Positions 3,231 to 45,231 of a stretch of DNA of 64,000 bases are shown in pieces. Below the pieces are notes generated by a model, which had not been told where the DNA came from, ran no database searches, and worked only from the letters and a program-made list of their open reading frames with translations. The stretch's first letter is position 1. Each line of letters begins with the position of its first letter. Both the position numbers and the translations under genes were made by a program. The stretch is from an uncultured Candidatus Saccharibacteria bacterium (GTDB taxonomy: Bacteria; Patescibacteriota; Doudnabacteria; UBA920): assembly GCA_964597895.1 (NCBI GenBank), contig CAZQZS010000002.1, forward strand, positions 3,914 through 67,913, written 5' to 3'.

Positions 3231-3863
3231 ATGTCTTTAGGAACTGATACCGAAAAGAACACGTCTCGCTGTCCGACCAACAGGCAAATCGGTCACGTTA
3301 ACGACTTCCATACAGATATTCTGTCGAAGCGTTCGCGGCAAGATTTGGACACCCTCATCCAAAATGGCGGTGTTTACAAAGAAGCCTACGAGAAGATGGT
3401 TGGCGAGGTTCTCGGTCTATTAACGAACACCATCACCGTCAAGGTGAAGGTCAAGCGTGGTCAGACCCCCCAGCAAGTGCTGGACGGAACTGGCAGGGAG
3501 CAATACACGAACAAGGCGGTCGTCGCCTCAATGCCGCTATCTGACGGCGAAGGCGAAGAAGAAGTTGAGTTTGTTTTCTTCAAGGTTGGGCGCAGTTTGC
3601 CTGACAGTGAAGTGGAAGCGGAGCGCAGGAAGCGTGGCTTGGTGCAAGACCTTGCCGCACAGGCGCAATACAACGCCGACAATCCCGACTTTGCTACCGA
3701 CCATCCGAACGGCGATAGCTGGAAGGATGGAAACGGCAAGTGGTGCTACGCCTTTTTCCGCCGTTGGGGCGACGAGCGCGAGGTGGACGTTCGCTTCAGC
3801 GCCCTCGACTGGCGTGACTTCTACTGGTTCGGCGGTCGCAAGGTTAAGCCTTCGGTTTCTTGA
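3231..3863 (+). CDS. hypothetical protein A (210 aa), unrecognised family, GC-rich codon usage
   Basis: AAGGAG 8 nt upstream of ATG; long ORF in a locally GC-rich block; no motif I can assign. Confidence 0.6.
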   Translation: MSLGTDTEKNTSRCPTNRQIGHVNDFHTDILSKRSRQDLDTLIQNGGVYKEAYEKMVGEVLGLLTNTITVKVKVKRGQTPQQVLDGTGREQYTNKAVVASMPLSDGEGEEEVEFVFFKVGRSLPDSEVEAERRKRGLVQDLAAQAQYNADNPDFATDHPNGDSWKDGNGKWCYAFFRRWGDEREVDVRFSALDWRDFYWFGGRKVKPSVS

Positions 3864-18653: not shown

Positions 18654-20426
18654 TTACTTTTTGGTTTTGATGTCTAGTTTGATATGCAAATCCTTGAGCT
18701 GTTTTTCGTTTACGTCCGACGGAGCGTCCATAAGCGTGTCTATAGCAGAGCCATTCTTTGGGAAGGCGATTACTTCTCGGATATTTGGCTCGTTTTCTAA
18801 AATCATAAACAGCCGGTCTAGTCCAAAAGCACATCCGCCGTGAGGAGGTGCGCCAAATTTGAAGGCGTTTATCATCGCACCGAATTTTTGGTTGACTTCC
18901 TCTTCATCAATGCCGACAATGCCAAAAGCTTTGTACATAACTTCTGGATTATAATTGCGCACCGCACCGCTGCAAATTTCGTAACCATTCGCAACCATAT
19001 CGTACTGATCGGCTTTAATGTCCAAAGGTTCAGCATTATCAAACGCTTTTAAGCCTCCGACTGGCATTGAGAATGGGTTGTGAGAAAAATCAATTTTCTT
19101 TTCTGATTCGTTGTACTCGTATAATGGAAAATCCACAATCCAAGCCAAAGCAACTACATTTGGATCTTTGAGGTTTAGCAAATCTCCTAAAGTTGAGCGC
19201 AGGCCACCCAGAACTTTATTAACCACAGCTTTGTCGTCTGCACCAAAGAACACTGCATCACCAGTTTGGGCGTTGGTTTTAGTTTTGATAGCAGAGATTT
19301 CTGCTTCCGACATGAACTTTAAGATAGGAGACTTTGGTCCTTCTTCGGTAAATAAAATGTAGGCTAAGCCACCAGCACCATCGCGCTTAGCTTGTTCGGT
19401 GAGTTGATCAATTTGACTACGAGAAAAGCTGGCTGCTTTGTTAGCGTTAATAGCTTTGATCACGCCACCGTTTTTGATGGCTGTAGCGAATACGCTAAAT
19501 TCAGTACTCTTAAAGTCGTCAGTTAAATCCACCATCTCCATACCAAATCGTAAATCTGGTTTGTCACTGCCATATTTGTCCATGGCTTCGTTGTAGGGAA
19601 TGCGTGGGGCAGGTGATTGCAAAACCTTCTTGCCTGCAAAGTCTTCTACTAAAGAAGTAATTAGAGGTTCAATTTCTTCTAATACTTGTGTTCCGCTATC
19701 AACAAAAGCCATTTCCAAGTCGAGTTGATAAAACTCGCCAGGATGGCGGTCAGCGCGCGGGTCTTCATCACGGAAACAAGGTGCAATCTGGAAATACTTT
19801 GGTAAGCCACCGACCATTAACAATTGTTTAAATTGTTGAGGGGCTTGTGGTAGAGCATAAAACTTTCCTGGATGGAGGCGAGAGGGCACTAAATAATCGC
19901 GAGCACCTTCTGGGCTAGATGAAGTAAGAATCGGAGTTGTGACCTCGGTGAAGTCACGGCCGTGCATGTATTCGCGAATCTTGGTATTGAATTGGTCTCG
20001 GCGACGCAATCGTGATTGCATTTTAGGTCGGCGCAAATCTAAGAAACGATATTTTAAGCGGAGTTCTTCGTTGACTTCTTCGGTGCCGAAAGACACAGGG
20101 AAGGGGAGCACTTCGGACTTGTTTAGGATTTCTAAATCGCTAACTACAATTTCGATTTGCCCAGTCGGCAGGTTTGGATTAACTAAATCTTTGCTTCGCT
20201 CAGCAACTTTACCAGCTGCTTTGATAACGAATTCATCTCTAACTGAACCTGCGATTTCAAAAGCTTCTTTTTGTTCAGGATGAATAGTTAATTGCACTAT
20301 TCCAGTGTGGTCGCGAAGGTCAATAAAAATTAAACCGCCGTGGTCACGGCTGTTGTTGACCCAGCCGGCGAGAGTGACTTCGTGTCCGACTAAGTTGAGA
20401 GTTTCTGAGGTTAGTATTCGTTCCAT
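18654..20426 (-). CDS. aspS: aspartyl-tRNA synthetase
   Basis: N-terminal OB anticodon-binding domain, class II motifs, insertion domain, 590 aa from 'MERILTSE'. Confidence 0.85.
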   Translation of the reverse strand: MERILTSETLNLVGHEVTLAGWVNNSRDHGGLIFIDLRDHTGIVQLTIHPEQKEAFEIAGSVRDEFVIKAAGKVAERSKDLVNPNLPTGQIEIVVSDLEILNKSEVLPFPVSFGTEEVNEELRLKYRFLDLRRPKMQSRLRRRDQFNTKIREYMHGRDFTEVTTPILTSSSPEGARDYLVPSRLHPGKFYALPQAPQQFKQLLMVGGLPKYFQIAPCFRDEDPRADRHPGEFYQLDLEMAFVDSGTQVLEEIEPLITSLVEDFAGKKVLQSPAPRIPYNEAMDKYGSDKPDLRFGMEMVDLTDDFKSTEFSVFATAIKNGGVIKAINANKAASFSRSQIDQLTEQAKRDGAGGLAYILFTEEGPKSPILKFMSEAEISAIKTKTNAQTGDAVFFGADDKAVVNKVLGGLRSTLGDLLNLKDPNVVALAWIVDFPLYEYNESEKKIDFSHNPFSMPVGGLKAFDNAEPLDIKADQYDMVANGYEICSGAVRNYNPEVMYKAFGIVGIDEEEVNQKFGAMINAFKFGAPPHGGCAFGLDRLFMILENEPNIREVIAFPKNGSAIDTLMDAPSDVNEKQLKDLHIKLDIKTKK

Positions 20427-20436
20427 AATCTGATAA

Positions 20437-20468
20437 ATTATACCAAAATTAAGCAGGTTTTGGCAAAA
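20437..20468 (-). promoter_or_regulatory. aspS promoter TTGCCA-N18-TGgTATAAT
   Basis: Read on the minus strand immediately upstream of the aspS ATG; very short leader. Confidence 0.45.
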
Positions 20469-20508
20469 GAAAAAAGCCGCAACCCCTGATGGAGAAGAGT
20501 TGCGGCTT
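20464..20508 (-). terminator. minus-strand terminator ending an upstream transcript
   Basis: 'aagccgcaac...gttgcggctt' hairpin followed (minus strand) by TTTTTTCTTTT. Confidence 0.5.
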
Positions 20509-20785
20509 CGGGCGGCAGACACATCGGTGGCTACCTATCGAGATACAGGGATTGGGTTATGATCCCGTCCTGCACCTCTTCAAGCGGTGTCACCAGGGCA
20601 CTAACGTTAGCGGCAAATAACGATGTGCGCCGTTGTTTTTGCGGCCGCTTGATTTTAATCCCCCTCAAAGTTCTAATATTACTTGCCATATTAGCAATAT
20701 TGCAGATTTATGTCAAAAGAAAAGAGAGCAGTTTTTTAGACTGCTCTCGGGTGCGACTCCGGGTCGCTACTTGGAGGAAACAAGT

Positions 20786-20866
20786 ATGATTGCTAAGGGG
20801 CGATTGCTCGCCCCGCCGATCAGTTTTTTGATCATTATTTCGCCGCCGGGGCGGCTAGTTGGGTGA
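20786..20866 (+). CDS. candidate 26-aa hydrophobic peptide (toxin-like/leader peptide), speculative
   Basis: GGAGG 8 nt upstream; 'MIAKGRLLAPPISFLIIISPPGRLVG'; an SD-sequestering hairpin 'gcgac tccgg gtcgc' lies just upstream and several hairpins plus a T-run lie downstream. Confidence 0.2.
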   Translation: MIAKGRLLAPPISFLIIISPPGRLVG

Positions 20867-21456
20867 TGGGTACATGATGATCTCTCCTTTGTGCGACGTG
20901 ATTGTCGCACTATTTTGGCGCCGAAGCCGATTAGGCTTCGGTCGAGCCGGTCGACGATCTTTTTTTTACATTCCCTGTCTCTGTGTCGTTGCCGGCGGAC
21001 CATGAATACGGTGTTTCATTCCAAAAGTCCTCCTGTGAAGTGTCTTTAGATGGGTGAGCCCTAGGGACCCACCCTCCTATATGAACGATTATTAGTCGCC
21101 CATTTTCACCCTAGTCATTTCTGAAAAGGGTATTTACGAATCGCGAATCGGGGGGCACTGCTTGTTGCTCCGCGAACTCCGCGACGCCATCGACCAACAA
21201 GTCTTGGCGTATTATCGTTAGGATGGGCTTTGCGGCCCGTCTTTGAATCAGACAGGATCTATATCAGGCGGCAAAGCCACCAGCTATCCATAACGAATTC
21301 GTAAAAATATATTACCATTTATTGTCACGTTTGTCAACCCATAAAAATTAAACCAGAAAAAACCTACCATAATTAAGCGATATTTTGGTTATCAGCTTCA
21401 AAGTCTGATATACTTAAAGCAAAGAAAGTTCAGTAAAAAGAAACCAAAATCAAAAA

Positions 21457-22035
21457 ATGCTCAAAAAGATAGTTTTAGATTTGGAAACTCAAAAATCTTT
21501 TGATGATGTCGGTGGTCGGGGCAAAAATCATTTGCTCAAAGTTTCAGTTTGCGGGATTTATGACTATTCCCGTGATATTTATGAAATTTATGAAGAGCAT
21601 GAATTGCCGCGTTTAGCACCGCTGCTGCAATCAGCTGATCAAATTATTGGATTTAATATCAAGCAATTTGATTTTGAAGTACTGCAGCCGTATTTAAACT
21701 TCTCACTCCAGCAAATCCCCGCCTACGACATTCTGGAGGAAATTGAAAAAGTAGTCGGTCATAAAATTCGCTTAGAAGCAGTTGCTCAGGCAACTTTAGG
21801 CACAGGCAAGTCTGGCAATGGCTTAGAGGCCTTACTCTATTATAAGAACGGGAAGATGGAACAATTAAAGCGCTATTGTTTAGATGATGTCCGGGTTACT
21901 AAAGGCGTATATGAACACGCTTTAAAAAATAACAAACTCTTGTATCGTGACTATTTTGCGATCAAAGAAATCCCAGTAGCATGCGCAGAGCCGCAGAGCC
22001 GCATCGGAGTCTATACACAGGCAGTATTGTTTTAA
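21457..22035 (+). CDS. stand-alone DEDDy-type 3'-5' exonuclease (RNase H-like fold)
   Basis: Exo I 'VLDLETQ', Exo II 'GFNIKQFDFEVL', Exo III 'YCLDDV'. Confidence 0.5.
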   Translation: MLKKIVLDLETQKSFDDVGGRGKNHLLKVSVCGIYDYSRDIYEIYEEHELPRLAPLLQSADQIIGFNIKQFDFEVLQPYLNFSLQQIPAYDILEEIEKVVGHKIRLEAVAQATLGTGKSGNGLEALLYYKNGKMEQLKRYCLDDVRVTKGVYEHALKNNKLLYRDYFAIKEIPVACAEPQSRIGVYTQAVLF

Positions 22036-44113: not shown

Positions 44114-44208
44114 AACTGTCTAATTGTATTGTTTCTATTGGTTTTTGGCAAGTTGTGTATCTGATGTTTAGGTGTTAATATAGTGTTAATTTTGAGGAGG
44201 ACAATGAA

Positions 44209-44475
44209 ATGATTAGACATAAACAAAGAAAGCAAAAGGTTGCTAGTCATCTTTCTACCAGTATCAGATCAATTTTGCCCAAGAAAAGTACAGAAGAGTT
44301 TATAGATGATGATACCAAGTTTGTGGTAAATTTCTTAGCTCTGGAAACAGGTATGCCACACGCTCAGATAGTAAGGCGGGCAGTTGCTCTGTGGAAACTT
44401 ACTTTCGTACACAATCCTGTCATACCACTACCTGATCAAGTCGAAAAACTAAGGTCTGAACATTTAAAAAAGTGA
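44209..44475 (+). CDS. hypothetical protein
   Basis: GGAGG upstream; 88 aa; terminator follows. Confidence 0.4.
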   Translation: MIRHKQRKQKVASHLSTSIRSILPKKSTEEFIDDDTKFVVNFLALETGMPHAQIVRRAVALWKLTFVHNPVIPLPDQVEKLRSEHLKK

Positions 44476-44488
44476 TCTATTATCATAA

Positions 44489-44520
44489 GACTGCTGAATT
44501 TTCCAGCAGTCAATTTTTTG
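44489..44520 (+). terminator. rho-independent terminator
   Basis: 'gactgctg aattttc cagcagtc' + T6. Confidence 0.55.
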
Positions 44521-44721
44521 GCACAAGTTGTATTGCTAATTGCTCAAGAATTGGTTAGTCTGTGAGTAAACTAAAGGAGGGTCACTGAAATGGAAGATCG
44601 GGTTACCGAGCATTACATCGGAATAAGCTTACTGCTATTTCTGGTCTTTTTCCCCTTTCTAATTGGAGTCCTTGTGCATGTGCTTAGTTGGTTGGCGGGA
44701 ATTCTGGAAAAAAGGTGAATA

Positions 44722-44756
44722 TATCAAAAGCCACCCTCAGACTTGTTGAAGGGTGG
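44722..44756 (-). terminator. terminator downstream of rpmE (minus strand)
   Basis: 'ccaccctcagacttgttgaagggtgg' with T-rich tail on the minus strand. Confidence 0.5.
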
Positions 44757-44763
44757 TTTGTTA

Positions 44764-45024
44764 TTATTCAGACTTAACTCCGCGAGTCTTGCGGGGCTTC
44801 TTTTCTTTCTTAACAGCTGTAGCAGCAGCTTCGCGACGCTTCTTGAAGCGGTCAACGTTACCAGTGGTGTCTAAAATCTTTTGCTTACCAGTGTAAAATG
44901 GGTGGCAGTTGCTGCAGATTTCAGTTTGGATTGATTCTAGTACAGAACCAGTTACAAATGAATTTCCGCAAGAACAAGTCACTTTTACGTCGGTGTGATA
45001 GGTTGGGTGAATTCCAGTTTTCAT
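44764..45024 (-). CDS. rpmE: ribosomal protein L31 (Zn-ribbon type)
   Basis: '[23 protein letters not shown]...[13 protein letters not shown]'. Confidence 0.85.
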
Positions 45025-45231
45025 AAAATATAAATTAAGTTCTATTCAGATTCTGGCGAAAATCTGGACAAAATGCAGTGCAAATACCTAATGATTATAG
45101 GGGAACTTGCACGTTTAGTCAATAGCTGGTATACTTTCGTGGTAATTAATCAAACATATTTCGGATAAATCCTGTCACTTTTGGCCAACTGGCTTAAGCT
45201 GATGACCGAAATAGAAGTTAAAGGATCACAT

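Follow-up and report, generated by a model that had tools for sequence, protein, structure and literature searches.

The subject of this work is the space between aspS and a divergently transcribed exonuclease gene in an uncultured Candidatus Saccharibacteria bacterium, as found in a 64,000-nucleotide (nt) stretch of contig CAZQZS010000002.1; this whole stretch is called the window below. aspS (18654-20426, minus strand) encodes an aspartyl-tRNA synthetase (AspRS) with the Pfam domains tRNA-synt_2, GAD and anticodon-binding, while the gene at 21457-22035 on the plus strand encodes an RNase_H_2/DEDDy-type exonuclease (Pfam). The interval between them measures 1030 nt and appears to hold two structured RNAs on the aspS strand, here named Unit 1 and RNA 2. 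A preliminary description of the tract at 20527-21456, made from the letters of the window, had seen no credible long open reading frame (ORF) in it, and we agree: the longest ORF spans 78 residues, the tract ORFs have no Pfam match, and no ORF of at least 30 residues is conserved across lineages. On the same grounds, a hidden protein gene or pseudogene was ruled out, including rpmH, which lies upstream of aspS in L032 and L041 (L-numbers designate the loci of relatives compared with the window).

The tract differs in composition from its surroundings. Its GC content in 200-nt windows over 20500-21300 is 0.43-0.545, mostly ~0.50, compared with ~0.39-0.485 in aspS and 0.27-0.38 at the start of the exonuclease gene; Unit 1 and RNA 2 reach 0.51 and 0.52, respectively, vs. 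0.442 for the whole 64-kb window. The tract is thus GC-richer than its flanks, as described before, and the palindromes listed at that time were all recovered in their places. Hairpin density is above that of shuffled sequences, with 9 terminator-like hairpins observed vs. 1.9 +/- 1.5 in shuffles. In addition, the minus-strand folding z-scores of three segments against dinucleotide shuffles are -4.6, -7.3 and -3.0, with 0 shuffles as stable as the native sequence.

A consensus scan of 20300-21600 yielded three promoter-like sites, all on the minus strand, i.e. the strand of aspS, and none on the plus strand; promoter and terminator calls are consensus matches throughout. Site 1 (21309-21337; TTGACA-17-TAATAT, TG-extended, 10/12 consensus) precedes Unit 1 (20715-21302, ~590 nt), a predicted structured RNA with two mini-ORFs, whose transcription start would fall at ~21302 as judged from the position of the -10 box. 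This site is invariant in close strains, and L176 keeps its hexamers (TTGACG-17-TAATAT) around a different spacer. Unit 1 ends at the intrinsic terminator 1 (20715-20748; GAGAGCAG-loop-CUGCUCUC followed by UUUUCUUUU), the stem of which is kept in L001, L003, L167 and L176 while its loop diverges; in L167 and L176, the synthetase promoter comes directly after it. Site 2 (20688-20716; TTGACA-17-TAATAT), whose -35 box overlaps the U-tract of terminator 1, precedes RNA 2 (20470-20682, ~210 nt), a predicted structured small RNA (sRNA). Here the hexamers are kept and the spacers changed in L002, L003, L169, L170 and L174. The intrinsic terminator 2 (20465-20509) then lies before the promoter-like site of aspS itself (20437-20466; TTGCCA-18-TATAAT, TG-extended, 11/12 consensus). 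The -10 box of the latter ends 10 nt upstream of the aspS ATG at 20426 and no Shine-Dalgarno (SD) sequence is present, so that the aspS mRNA appears nearly leaderless.

The U-tracts of the two terminators (CUCUUUUCUUUUGACA and CUUUUUUCUUUUGCCA) each run into the next -35 box. With two strong minus-strand terminators (20748-20724 and 20509-20473) and their promoter-like sites of the sigma-70 type, the tract reads as two head-to-tail units ahead of the aspS promoter, and it appears to consist of two independent minus-strand transcription units, from which Unit 1 and RNA 2 would be transcribed as discrete RNAs. The preliminary description had placed a minus-strand terminator at 20464-20508 and proposed that a minus-strand transcript ends there. 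The terminator is present (20509-20473 in our scan), and the proposed transcript is supported by the conserved, covarying minus-strand structure reported below. The suggestion that the tract encodes a large structured non-coding RNA was correct as to a structured, covarying RNA on the minus strand, but the tract appears to hold two independent units and not one RNA.

Relatives were collected in several ways. The exact AspRS protein is found on two Logan contigs, and a scan of GTDB species genomes gave 80 loci, nearly all labelled Saccharibacteria; the relatives are metagenome-assembled genomes (MAGs) of this group. A metagenome scan with AspRS gave few close relatives. Exonuclease homologs led to further contigs with 83-100% identity. 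The order exonuclease-gap-aspS is kept in many of the closer relatives, with a gap of up to ~1.4 kb. Among these, L176-181 belong to a different species: their exonuclease is 83% identical to that of the window, and their Unit 1 homolog is 74% identical over 651 nt. Conservation and covariation were found among the relatives for both minus-strand units.

For Unit 1, an alignment of the window, L001 and L176 (A9) contains 155 pairs, in which 92% of the cells are paired vs. 36-47% in controls with the pairing partners slid along the alignment. Compensatory double changes occur in 22 pairs vs. 0-7 in the slid controls, a value that 0/500 shuffles reach. The two lower folding z-scores given above (-4.6 and -7.3) belong to this unit. 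The RNA begins with a multi-helix 5' domain (21133-21305; minimum free energy (MFE) -68.2 kcal/mol, z = -4.6) that includes a C-rich segment, GUGCCCCCCGAUUC, at 21145-21158; helices 1-5 of this domain are kept in L176 with a few compensatory changes. A strong hairpin, GGGUGGGUC…GACUCACCC (21048-21077; helix 8), stands upstream of the SD of the first mini-ORF. Its outer 9-10 base pairs (bp) are kept in L176, where the apex is replaced, and analogous GGRAGGG/CCCUYCC hairpins precede a mini-ORF SD in L004, L005, L013 and L055, as judged by eye. Three GC-rich hairpins lie between the mini-ORFs at 20891-20955, namely GUCGACCGGCUCGAC; CCGAAGCC-UAAUC-GGCUUCGG; and GUGCGAC-AAUCAC-GUCGCAC. Both L001 and L176 retain the second and third of these (helices 13 and 14), whereas L176 does not retain the first.

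The 3' domain of Unit 1 (20749-20854) contains a GCCGCC/GGCGGC hairpin and then a loop region that varies; next come an extended hairpin capped by a GCAA tetraloop (20787-20822), UCCUCC, which is conserved and single-stranded (within 20768-20786), and a GCGAC…GUCGC hairpin (20753-20767) that is followed by terminator 1. The element GCAAUCAU sits between the GCAA hairpin and UCCUCC. Despite the overall identity of 74%, a 37-nt block of this domain is identical in the window and L176. The same layout recurs in L167, L170 and L174, and six lineages retain UCCUCC or CCUCC at this position. The conserved single-stranded elements of the tract are UCCUCC and CGCAAAAAC, together with the (C/A)UCAU of RNA 2. 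A covariance model, R2, has one match in the window (20749-20822, minus strand) and also matches L001/L002/L006/L163, L176-181 and L170-172, as well as, weakly, the independent L167. No Rfam family was matched by Unit 1 in the window or in its homologs.

Each of the two mini-ORFs of Unit 1 follows a strong SD. ORF A (20966-21019, minus strand) has 17 codons, MKHRIHGPPATTQRQGM* (MKHRIHGPP…), and is preceded by AGGAGGA (21028-21034) with an 8-nt spacer. ORF B (20855-20875, minus strand) has 6 codons, MYPSPN*, and is preceded by AAGGAGAG (20882-20889) with a 6-nt spacer; its stop codon UAG abuts the next hairpin. In a crude test, only 8/45 long ORFs of the window had an SD-like motif upstream, so that the SDs of the mini-ORFs stand out; both mini-ORFs may be translated. 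L001 and L176 share with the window the N-terminus of ORF A, M(K/R)..I(H/N)(G/S)PP, the differences there being synonymous changes and an indel that leaves the frame intact. Past PP, the window and L001 are offset by a 1-nt indel, and the ORF of L001 runs to 49 codons with an unrelated Arg-rich tail. From these comparisons, selection appears to act on the ORF A peptide up to PP and not beyond. The ORF B peptide is MYPSPN in the window, MHPSPN in L001 and MNPSPT in L176, and its Pro codons vary at the third position only (CCA/CCA/CCU and CCC/CCA/CCG in the window/L001/L176). Short ORFs ending in P-[TN]-(x)-stop with a GC hairpin directly after them are also present in L167, L170, L055, L004, L011 and L008.

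These ORFs raise the main rival to a regulatory RNA, namely that Unit 1 is an mRNA for one or two tiny proteins or peptides, with hairpins that serve stability or translational control. A clade of relatives (L008/L010/L011/L083) carries at the position of ORF A an ORF of 44-48 residues with coding-type conservation, in-frame indels and synonymous substitutions (L010 gap positions 240-374; conserved motifs IWPP, IGDPGS and ISRDF*), which looks like a genuine small gene. Together with the strong SDs in a genome where SDs are rare, this ORF speaks for the peptide reading. The same reading would take up the variability of the unit as diversifying selection on a secreted or signalling peptide, similar to a pherotype. 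Between the window and L001, aspS is 99.9% identical, the exonuclease gene 100%, RNA 2 99.6% and the Unit 1 5' domain 98.8%, whereas the middle of Unit 1 (20861-21132) is only ~79% identical over 230 nt and contains a further 54 nt that do not align. The hypervariable segment covers ORF A and its upstream hairpins. However, ORF A of the window has just 17 codons and loses its frame after GPP relative to L001, ORF B has 6, and the best-conserved parts of Unit 1, namely the 5' domain and the 37-nt block of the 3' domain, are non-coding. Among 5.8 billion proteins, the longer form of ORF A has just 3 family members, none with a Pfam or NCBIfam assignment, and no genes for processing, export or a receptor are adjacent. 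We consider the peptide mRNA unlikely, while ranking it above the other alternatives discussed below, i.e. a cis leader of aspS, debris and a plus-strand toxin–antitoxin locus.

RNA 2 was compared across five lineages (alignment A8), its homologs being those of the window group, L003, L169, L170-172 and L174. Its predicted fold comprises H1 (20645-20652 paired with 20580-20587), the H2 hairpin (20598-20628), the long H3 hairpin (20540-20578), which is capped by GGG-AUCAUAA-CCC, and H4 (20514-20535), all on the minus strand. Over 58 pairs, 90.5% of the cells are paired vs. 38-46% when the partners are slid by 1-3 columns, and compensatory double changes occur in 18 pairs vs. 2-8 in the slid controls; 0/500 shuffles reach the observed values. 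H3 is 100% paired, and all sequences form a 10-bp helix, GAGGUGCAGG/CCUGUAUCUC, in which eight positions vary. On the minus strand, the consensus energy amounts to -56.2 vs. -44.0 on the opposite one. There are also 42 G.U cells vs. 9 A.C cells, although deriving the structure on the minus strand favours G.U in this count. For the core, a covariance model (R1) has a single window match (20536-20655, minus strand, 127.9 bits) and, among 98 sources totalling 785 kb, matches only the RNA 2 lineages. As for Unit 1, there is no Rfam family match in the window or in the homologs. An RNA 2 motif also occurs by chance in six viral loci, where R1 has no matches.

The apical hairpin of RNA 2 reads GGG-(C/A)UCAUAA-CCC in the window, L003 and L174, with A as the first loop base in the window, while the loop has 8 nt in L169 and L170. 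We take the family consensus of this hairpin, GGGCUCAUAACCC, to be equal to the 13-nt anticodon stem-loop of bacterial initiator tRNA. The loop differs in length in two lineages, and this likeness is therefore treated as a lead only. Unlike initiator tRNA, the rest of RNA 2 has no tRNA-like arms, and ARAGORN finds no tRNA or transfer-messenger RNA (tmRNA) there. The consensus also fits the YUNR U-turn of the recognition loops of antisense RNAs and sRNAs.

The preliminary description had drawn attention to the opposite strand, where an ORF of 26 residues, MIAKGRLLAPPISFLIIISPPGRLVG, was proposed as part of a type I toxin–antitoxin locus or a leader-peptide attenuator; in this reading, the minus-strand RNA would oppose it as an antisense RNA. 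The ORF does exist (20786-20866, plus strand), with GGAGG, a 7-nt spacer and ATG, and a hairpin followed by T8 lies downstream of it on the same strand. Furthermore, the SD, the ATG and the first 12 codons fall inside the block that is identical in L176, and a similar start, MIAIGANCLAPPI, was seen by eye in L170. Against this, the ORF is out of frame in relatives, an outcome which the preliminary description had itself named as speaking against the locus. It is frameshifted after residue 14 in L001, which has an identical AspRS protein and 99.9% aspS DNA identity, and its hydrophobic core is rewritten in L002. By eye, its downstream block lies in another frame in L176 and its ATG is ATA in L167. 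The hydrophobic run of ~8 residues is too short for a membrane helix, the consensus scan of 20300-21600 gave no promoter-like site on the plus strand, and no Rfam type I toxin–antitoxin family matches the tract at E <= 10. In addition, GCAAUCAU…UCCUCC, which is conserved on the minus strand, is exactly complementary to the SD-ATG, and the conserved codons of the ORF coincide with the stems of covarying minus-strand hairpins. The ORF is thus judged to be the complement of these hairpins and not a gene, and the plus-strand model is close to refuted.

The position of the tract upstream of aspS suggests another role, that of a cis leader. In this reading, the tract or its aspS-proximal part would control read-through of terminator 2 (or 1) as a replacement or degenerate form of a T-box, maybe via ribosome stalling on a mini-ORF. 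A bona fide T-box with an ultrashort stem I, a form known from actinobacterial ileS, lies directly upstream of aspS, at exactly the same position and strand, in 14 relatives (alignment A3; L055 2246-2454, and L008-L012, L015-L018, L020, L021, L023 and L083), and like the tract it ends in an intrinsic terminator before aspS. The units of the tract, for their part, are always on the aspS strand with a terminator just upstream of the gene, and ORF B of the window ends in the Asn codon AAC, which is the specifier of most of the relatives' T-boxes (GAC, for Asp, in four). In L055, the T-box scores 46.9 bits against RF00230 (E = 8e-9) vs. a gathering score of 93, the difference resulting from 72 missing stem-I positions. 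Being below the Rfam gathering cut-off, the aspS T-boxes are missed by standard annotation. An AAC specifier before aspS would fit a non-discriminating AspRS regulated by the charging of tRNA-Asn.

The window, however, matches neither RF00230 at E <= 10 nor a hidden Markov model (HMM) of the relatives' T-box. It has no T-box sequence, specifier hairpin or antiterminator, and RNA 2 has a different fold with support of its own. A degenerate T-box was therefore rejected; the octamer AUUAGAAC that the window shares with the T-boxes is not kept in L003. The sole candidate for a specifier hairpin (20724-20748) has a non-conserved loop (UCUAAAAAA, UAUAACAA, UCUAAACAG and CUUAUAAA) and lies upstream of promoter-like site 2. 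A strong promoter-like site stands between terminator 2 and aspS, and its TATAAT and context are conserved just before aspS in the other relatives without a T-box. Inspection by eye, which was not exhaustive, revealed no upstream complement to the 5' strand of either terminator and hence no antiterminator alternative that could compete with the terminator stems. ORF B does not always have an Asn or Asp codon before its stop, the last sense codon being ACG in L176 and L170. The codon enrichment of a leader-peptide attenuator is absent as well, with one Asn codon in ORF B of the window and neither Asn nor Asp in its L170 homolog, MKAVPT. Finally, the T-box relatives carry extra promoter-to-terminator units upstream of the T-box, so that small transcription units appear to be a general feature of the exonuclease-aspS space. 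That the tract acts as a cis leader of aspS is thus improbable, and a leader-peptide attenuator of this gene finds no support either.

One such extra unit, in L011 (~3470-3780; also in L010, L083 and L008), is a different one that spans ~300 nt from promoter to terminator and is placed between the small-ORF unit and the T-box. Its closing helix covaries (GUCGAUG/CAUCGAC vs. GUCGUU/AAACGAC), and it further contains a GC-rich element resembling a pseudoknot, a stretch rich in A/U and an AUCCUCC element; the unit matches no Rfam family.

Unit 1 and RNA 2 behave as independent cassettes. The window has both, L167 and L176 have the Unit 1 type and no RNA 2, in L169, RNA 2 and its promoter are accompanied by just a Unit 1 vestige of ~60 nt, and three modules are present in L170. 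The third module of L170 follows RNA 2 (~gap positions 820-1290, reverse complement of 846-2200), and at its 3' end it looks like the 3' domain of Unit 1 in L174, with a GGGAAGC…GCUUCCC hairpin, GUCAUCAUAA, a GCAGC…GCUGC hairpin and a terminator, which suggests duplication or shuffling of modules. The near-identical junctions of terminator and -35 box may provide a substrate for the gain and loss of units by recombination. Part of the variable middle segment (20861-21132) is of the window type in L176, which is more distant, and this suggests that alleles were exchanged instead of drifting apart gradually. A number of contigs and scaffolds are interrupted within the Unit 1 region or at its edge, a pattern that is consistent with strain-level heterogeneity; these include 100-N scaffold gaps (L003 3558-3657 and L020 3500-3599) and the contig ends of L165, L166, L167 and L168, from independent assemblies.

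The presence and absence of modules, the assembly breaks and the narrow distribution could also be expected of non-functional debris, i.e. decaying gene remnants or the scar of a mobile element in which the hairpins are incidental. The helices, however, are kept by compensatory change, and the promoter hexamers and the terminators persist while spacers and loops drift. Parts of the tract are about as conserved as the flanking genes (98.8-99.6% vs. 98.4-100%), and there are no window repeats, protein remnants, or phage or plasmid similarity. Debris is accordingly a very improbable explanation, and the tract probably holds real minus-strand structured RNA genes.

Known RNA families and mobile elements were also considered. 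At gathering thresholds, Rfam has no match in the tract, while RNase P RNA and five tRNAs are identified in other parts of the window. The Rfam scan proposed along with the preliminary description brought no family for the tract even at E <= 10, where all hits were noise and the top one was cyano_tmRNA (18.6 bits vs. a gathering score of 70). Scans of L011, L055, L170 and L176 gave no family except the T-box of L055. The RNase P RNA of the window (class A; 55989-56313, minus strand) scores 118 bits vs. a gathering score of 100. It is thus near the detection limit, and other standard RNAs of this genome could escape family scans. Because of the cyano_tmRNA match, a resemblance in GAUUC…GACGGG and ends that could pair as GGUGGCU/AGCCACC, tmRNA, including its split two-piece form, was considered as a candidate. 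It was ruled out: ARAGORN is negative in the window and 21 relatives, the match is not reproduced in L170 or L176, the candidate end pairing gives U3-A70 instead of G3.U70, there is no T-loop, and GGUGGC pairs locally. The tract is single-copy within the window, with no repeats of it there, and has no blastn match to phage or plasmid records; an origin from a phage, a plasmid or a dispersed repeat was rejected. A stem-GAGCAAUC-stem hairpin was dropped as a homology marker to L012 and L055. As an 18-mer, GGGGCGAGCAATCGCCCC, this hairpin has >120 exact occurrences in viral contigs of IMG/VR (L188 onward), which identifies it as a generic, very stable and widely reused GNRA-tetraloop hairpin.

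With these alternatives weighed, the best overall explanation of the tract, to which we give a probability of roughly 60%, is an island of two minus-strand RNA genes, a dual-function RNA and an sRNA. Dual-function sRNAs are exemplified by RNAIII of Staphylococcus aureus and SR1/SR1P of Bacillus. Like these, Unit 1 extends over several hundred nt with its own promoter-like site and terminator signal, many stable hairpins, an internal small ORF led by an SD, and a C/U-rich single-stranded element complementary to the SD (UCCUCC). The covarying structure of a dual-function sRNA is likewise present in Unit 1 (92% vs. 36-47% paired; 22 vs. 0-7 pairs). Unlike RNAIII and SR1, Unit 1 has two mini-ORFs, one of only 6 codons, and an internal segment that is hypervariable between strains. 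It has no sequence or Rfam relationship to them, and no quorum-sensing or other regulatory locus stands beside it.

In this explanation, Unit 1 would be a dual-function regulatory RNA of the RNAIII type, whose fold and C/U-rich single-stranded elements act on the ribosome-binding regions of other mRNAs. Its 3' domain would expose the anti-SD-like UCCUCC, which, together with the C-rich elements, could pair with ribosome-binding sites. Ribosomes on the proline mini-ORFs (…GPP…; M-x-P-S-P-N/T-stop) might remodel the adjacent downstream hairpins, or the peptides themselves might be the product. RNA 2 would be a separate trans-acting sRNA whose conserved (C/A)UCAU apical loop probably recognises targets. 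This specific functional model is tentative, and we hold it to be rather less probable than not. A more elaborate version is a long shot: a recombining cassette array in which Unit 1 is an RNAIII-like master regulator with swapped, pherotype-like central alleles, the proline mini-ORFs sense nascent chains or termination and refold the RNA, and the initiator-tRNA-like anticodon arm or anti-AUG loop of RNA 2 hinders initiation on leaderless or SD-less mRNAs.

Several observations weigh against the island of two RNA genes. The promoters and terminators are known as consensus matches. The covariation of Unit 1 comes from 3 lineages and that of RNA 2 from 5, all closely related, so that the counts of compensatory changes are not independent events. 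The strand preference of Unit 1 in consensus folding is weak (-165.1 vs. -160.3), and single-sequence MFEs do not discriminate between the strands. Models R1 and R2 found nothing outside relatives with ~83% or higher exonuclease identity, i.e. the distribution is narrow. In the lineage to which the window belongs, ORF A is truncated or frameshifted, and the 6 codons of ORF B make selection on its peptide inseparable from selection on the RNA sequence. Finally, a quick look in the window for UUAUGAG-type start regions as targets of the RNA 2 loop gave nothing convincing.

The proline motif of ORF A also recalls the translation arrest peptides of the RAPP/RGPP type, such as ApdA, ApdP and SecM-like peptides (PMC7897499, PMC10951233, PMC12992588). 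ORF A reads …R-I-H-G-P-P…, relatives have IWPP, IRPP or SPPG, and conservation extends up to PP as for a nascent-chain element. In contrast to that class, HGPP or SPPG takes the place of the motif, neither a Sec nor a YidC gene lies downstream, and Unit 1 ends in a terminator with no protein gene after the ORF within the unit. ORF A thus lacks the C-terminal motif and the gene context of the RAPP-like class.

Saccharibacteria and other Patescibacteria have tiny genomes with few recognisable regulators, and the episymbiont lineage has recently become genetically tractable. In the literature searched, we saw no regulatory RNAs described as native to Saccharibacteria or to other Patescibacteria. 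We regard Unit 1 and RNA 2 as new families within a known kind, i.e. structured sRNAs and dual-function RNAs, in one Saccharibacteria clade. Two RNA genes with comparative support, together with the T-box of the sister genera, offer concrete candidates with which RNA-based regulation can be tested in this lineage. With units that come and go as cassettes and with its hypervariable segment, the tract is also useful as a small model for the gain, loss and exchange of sRNA genes. Should a regulatory role be confirmed for the proline mini-ORFs, they would constitute a new case of peptide-dependent RNA switching.

Two further regions of the window, 44120-45168 and 1-986 (~1 kb each, GC 0.38 and 0.40), are without a stop-to-stop ORF of at least 100 residues. 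In L176-L180 (41-1348), the synthetase next to ScpA is a class II enzyme of 435 residues with anticodon-binding and tRNA-synt_2 domains and no GAD domain, which replaces the bacterial-type AspRS of 590 residues.

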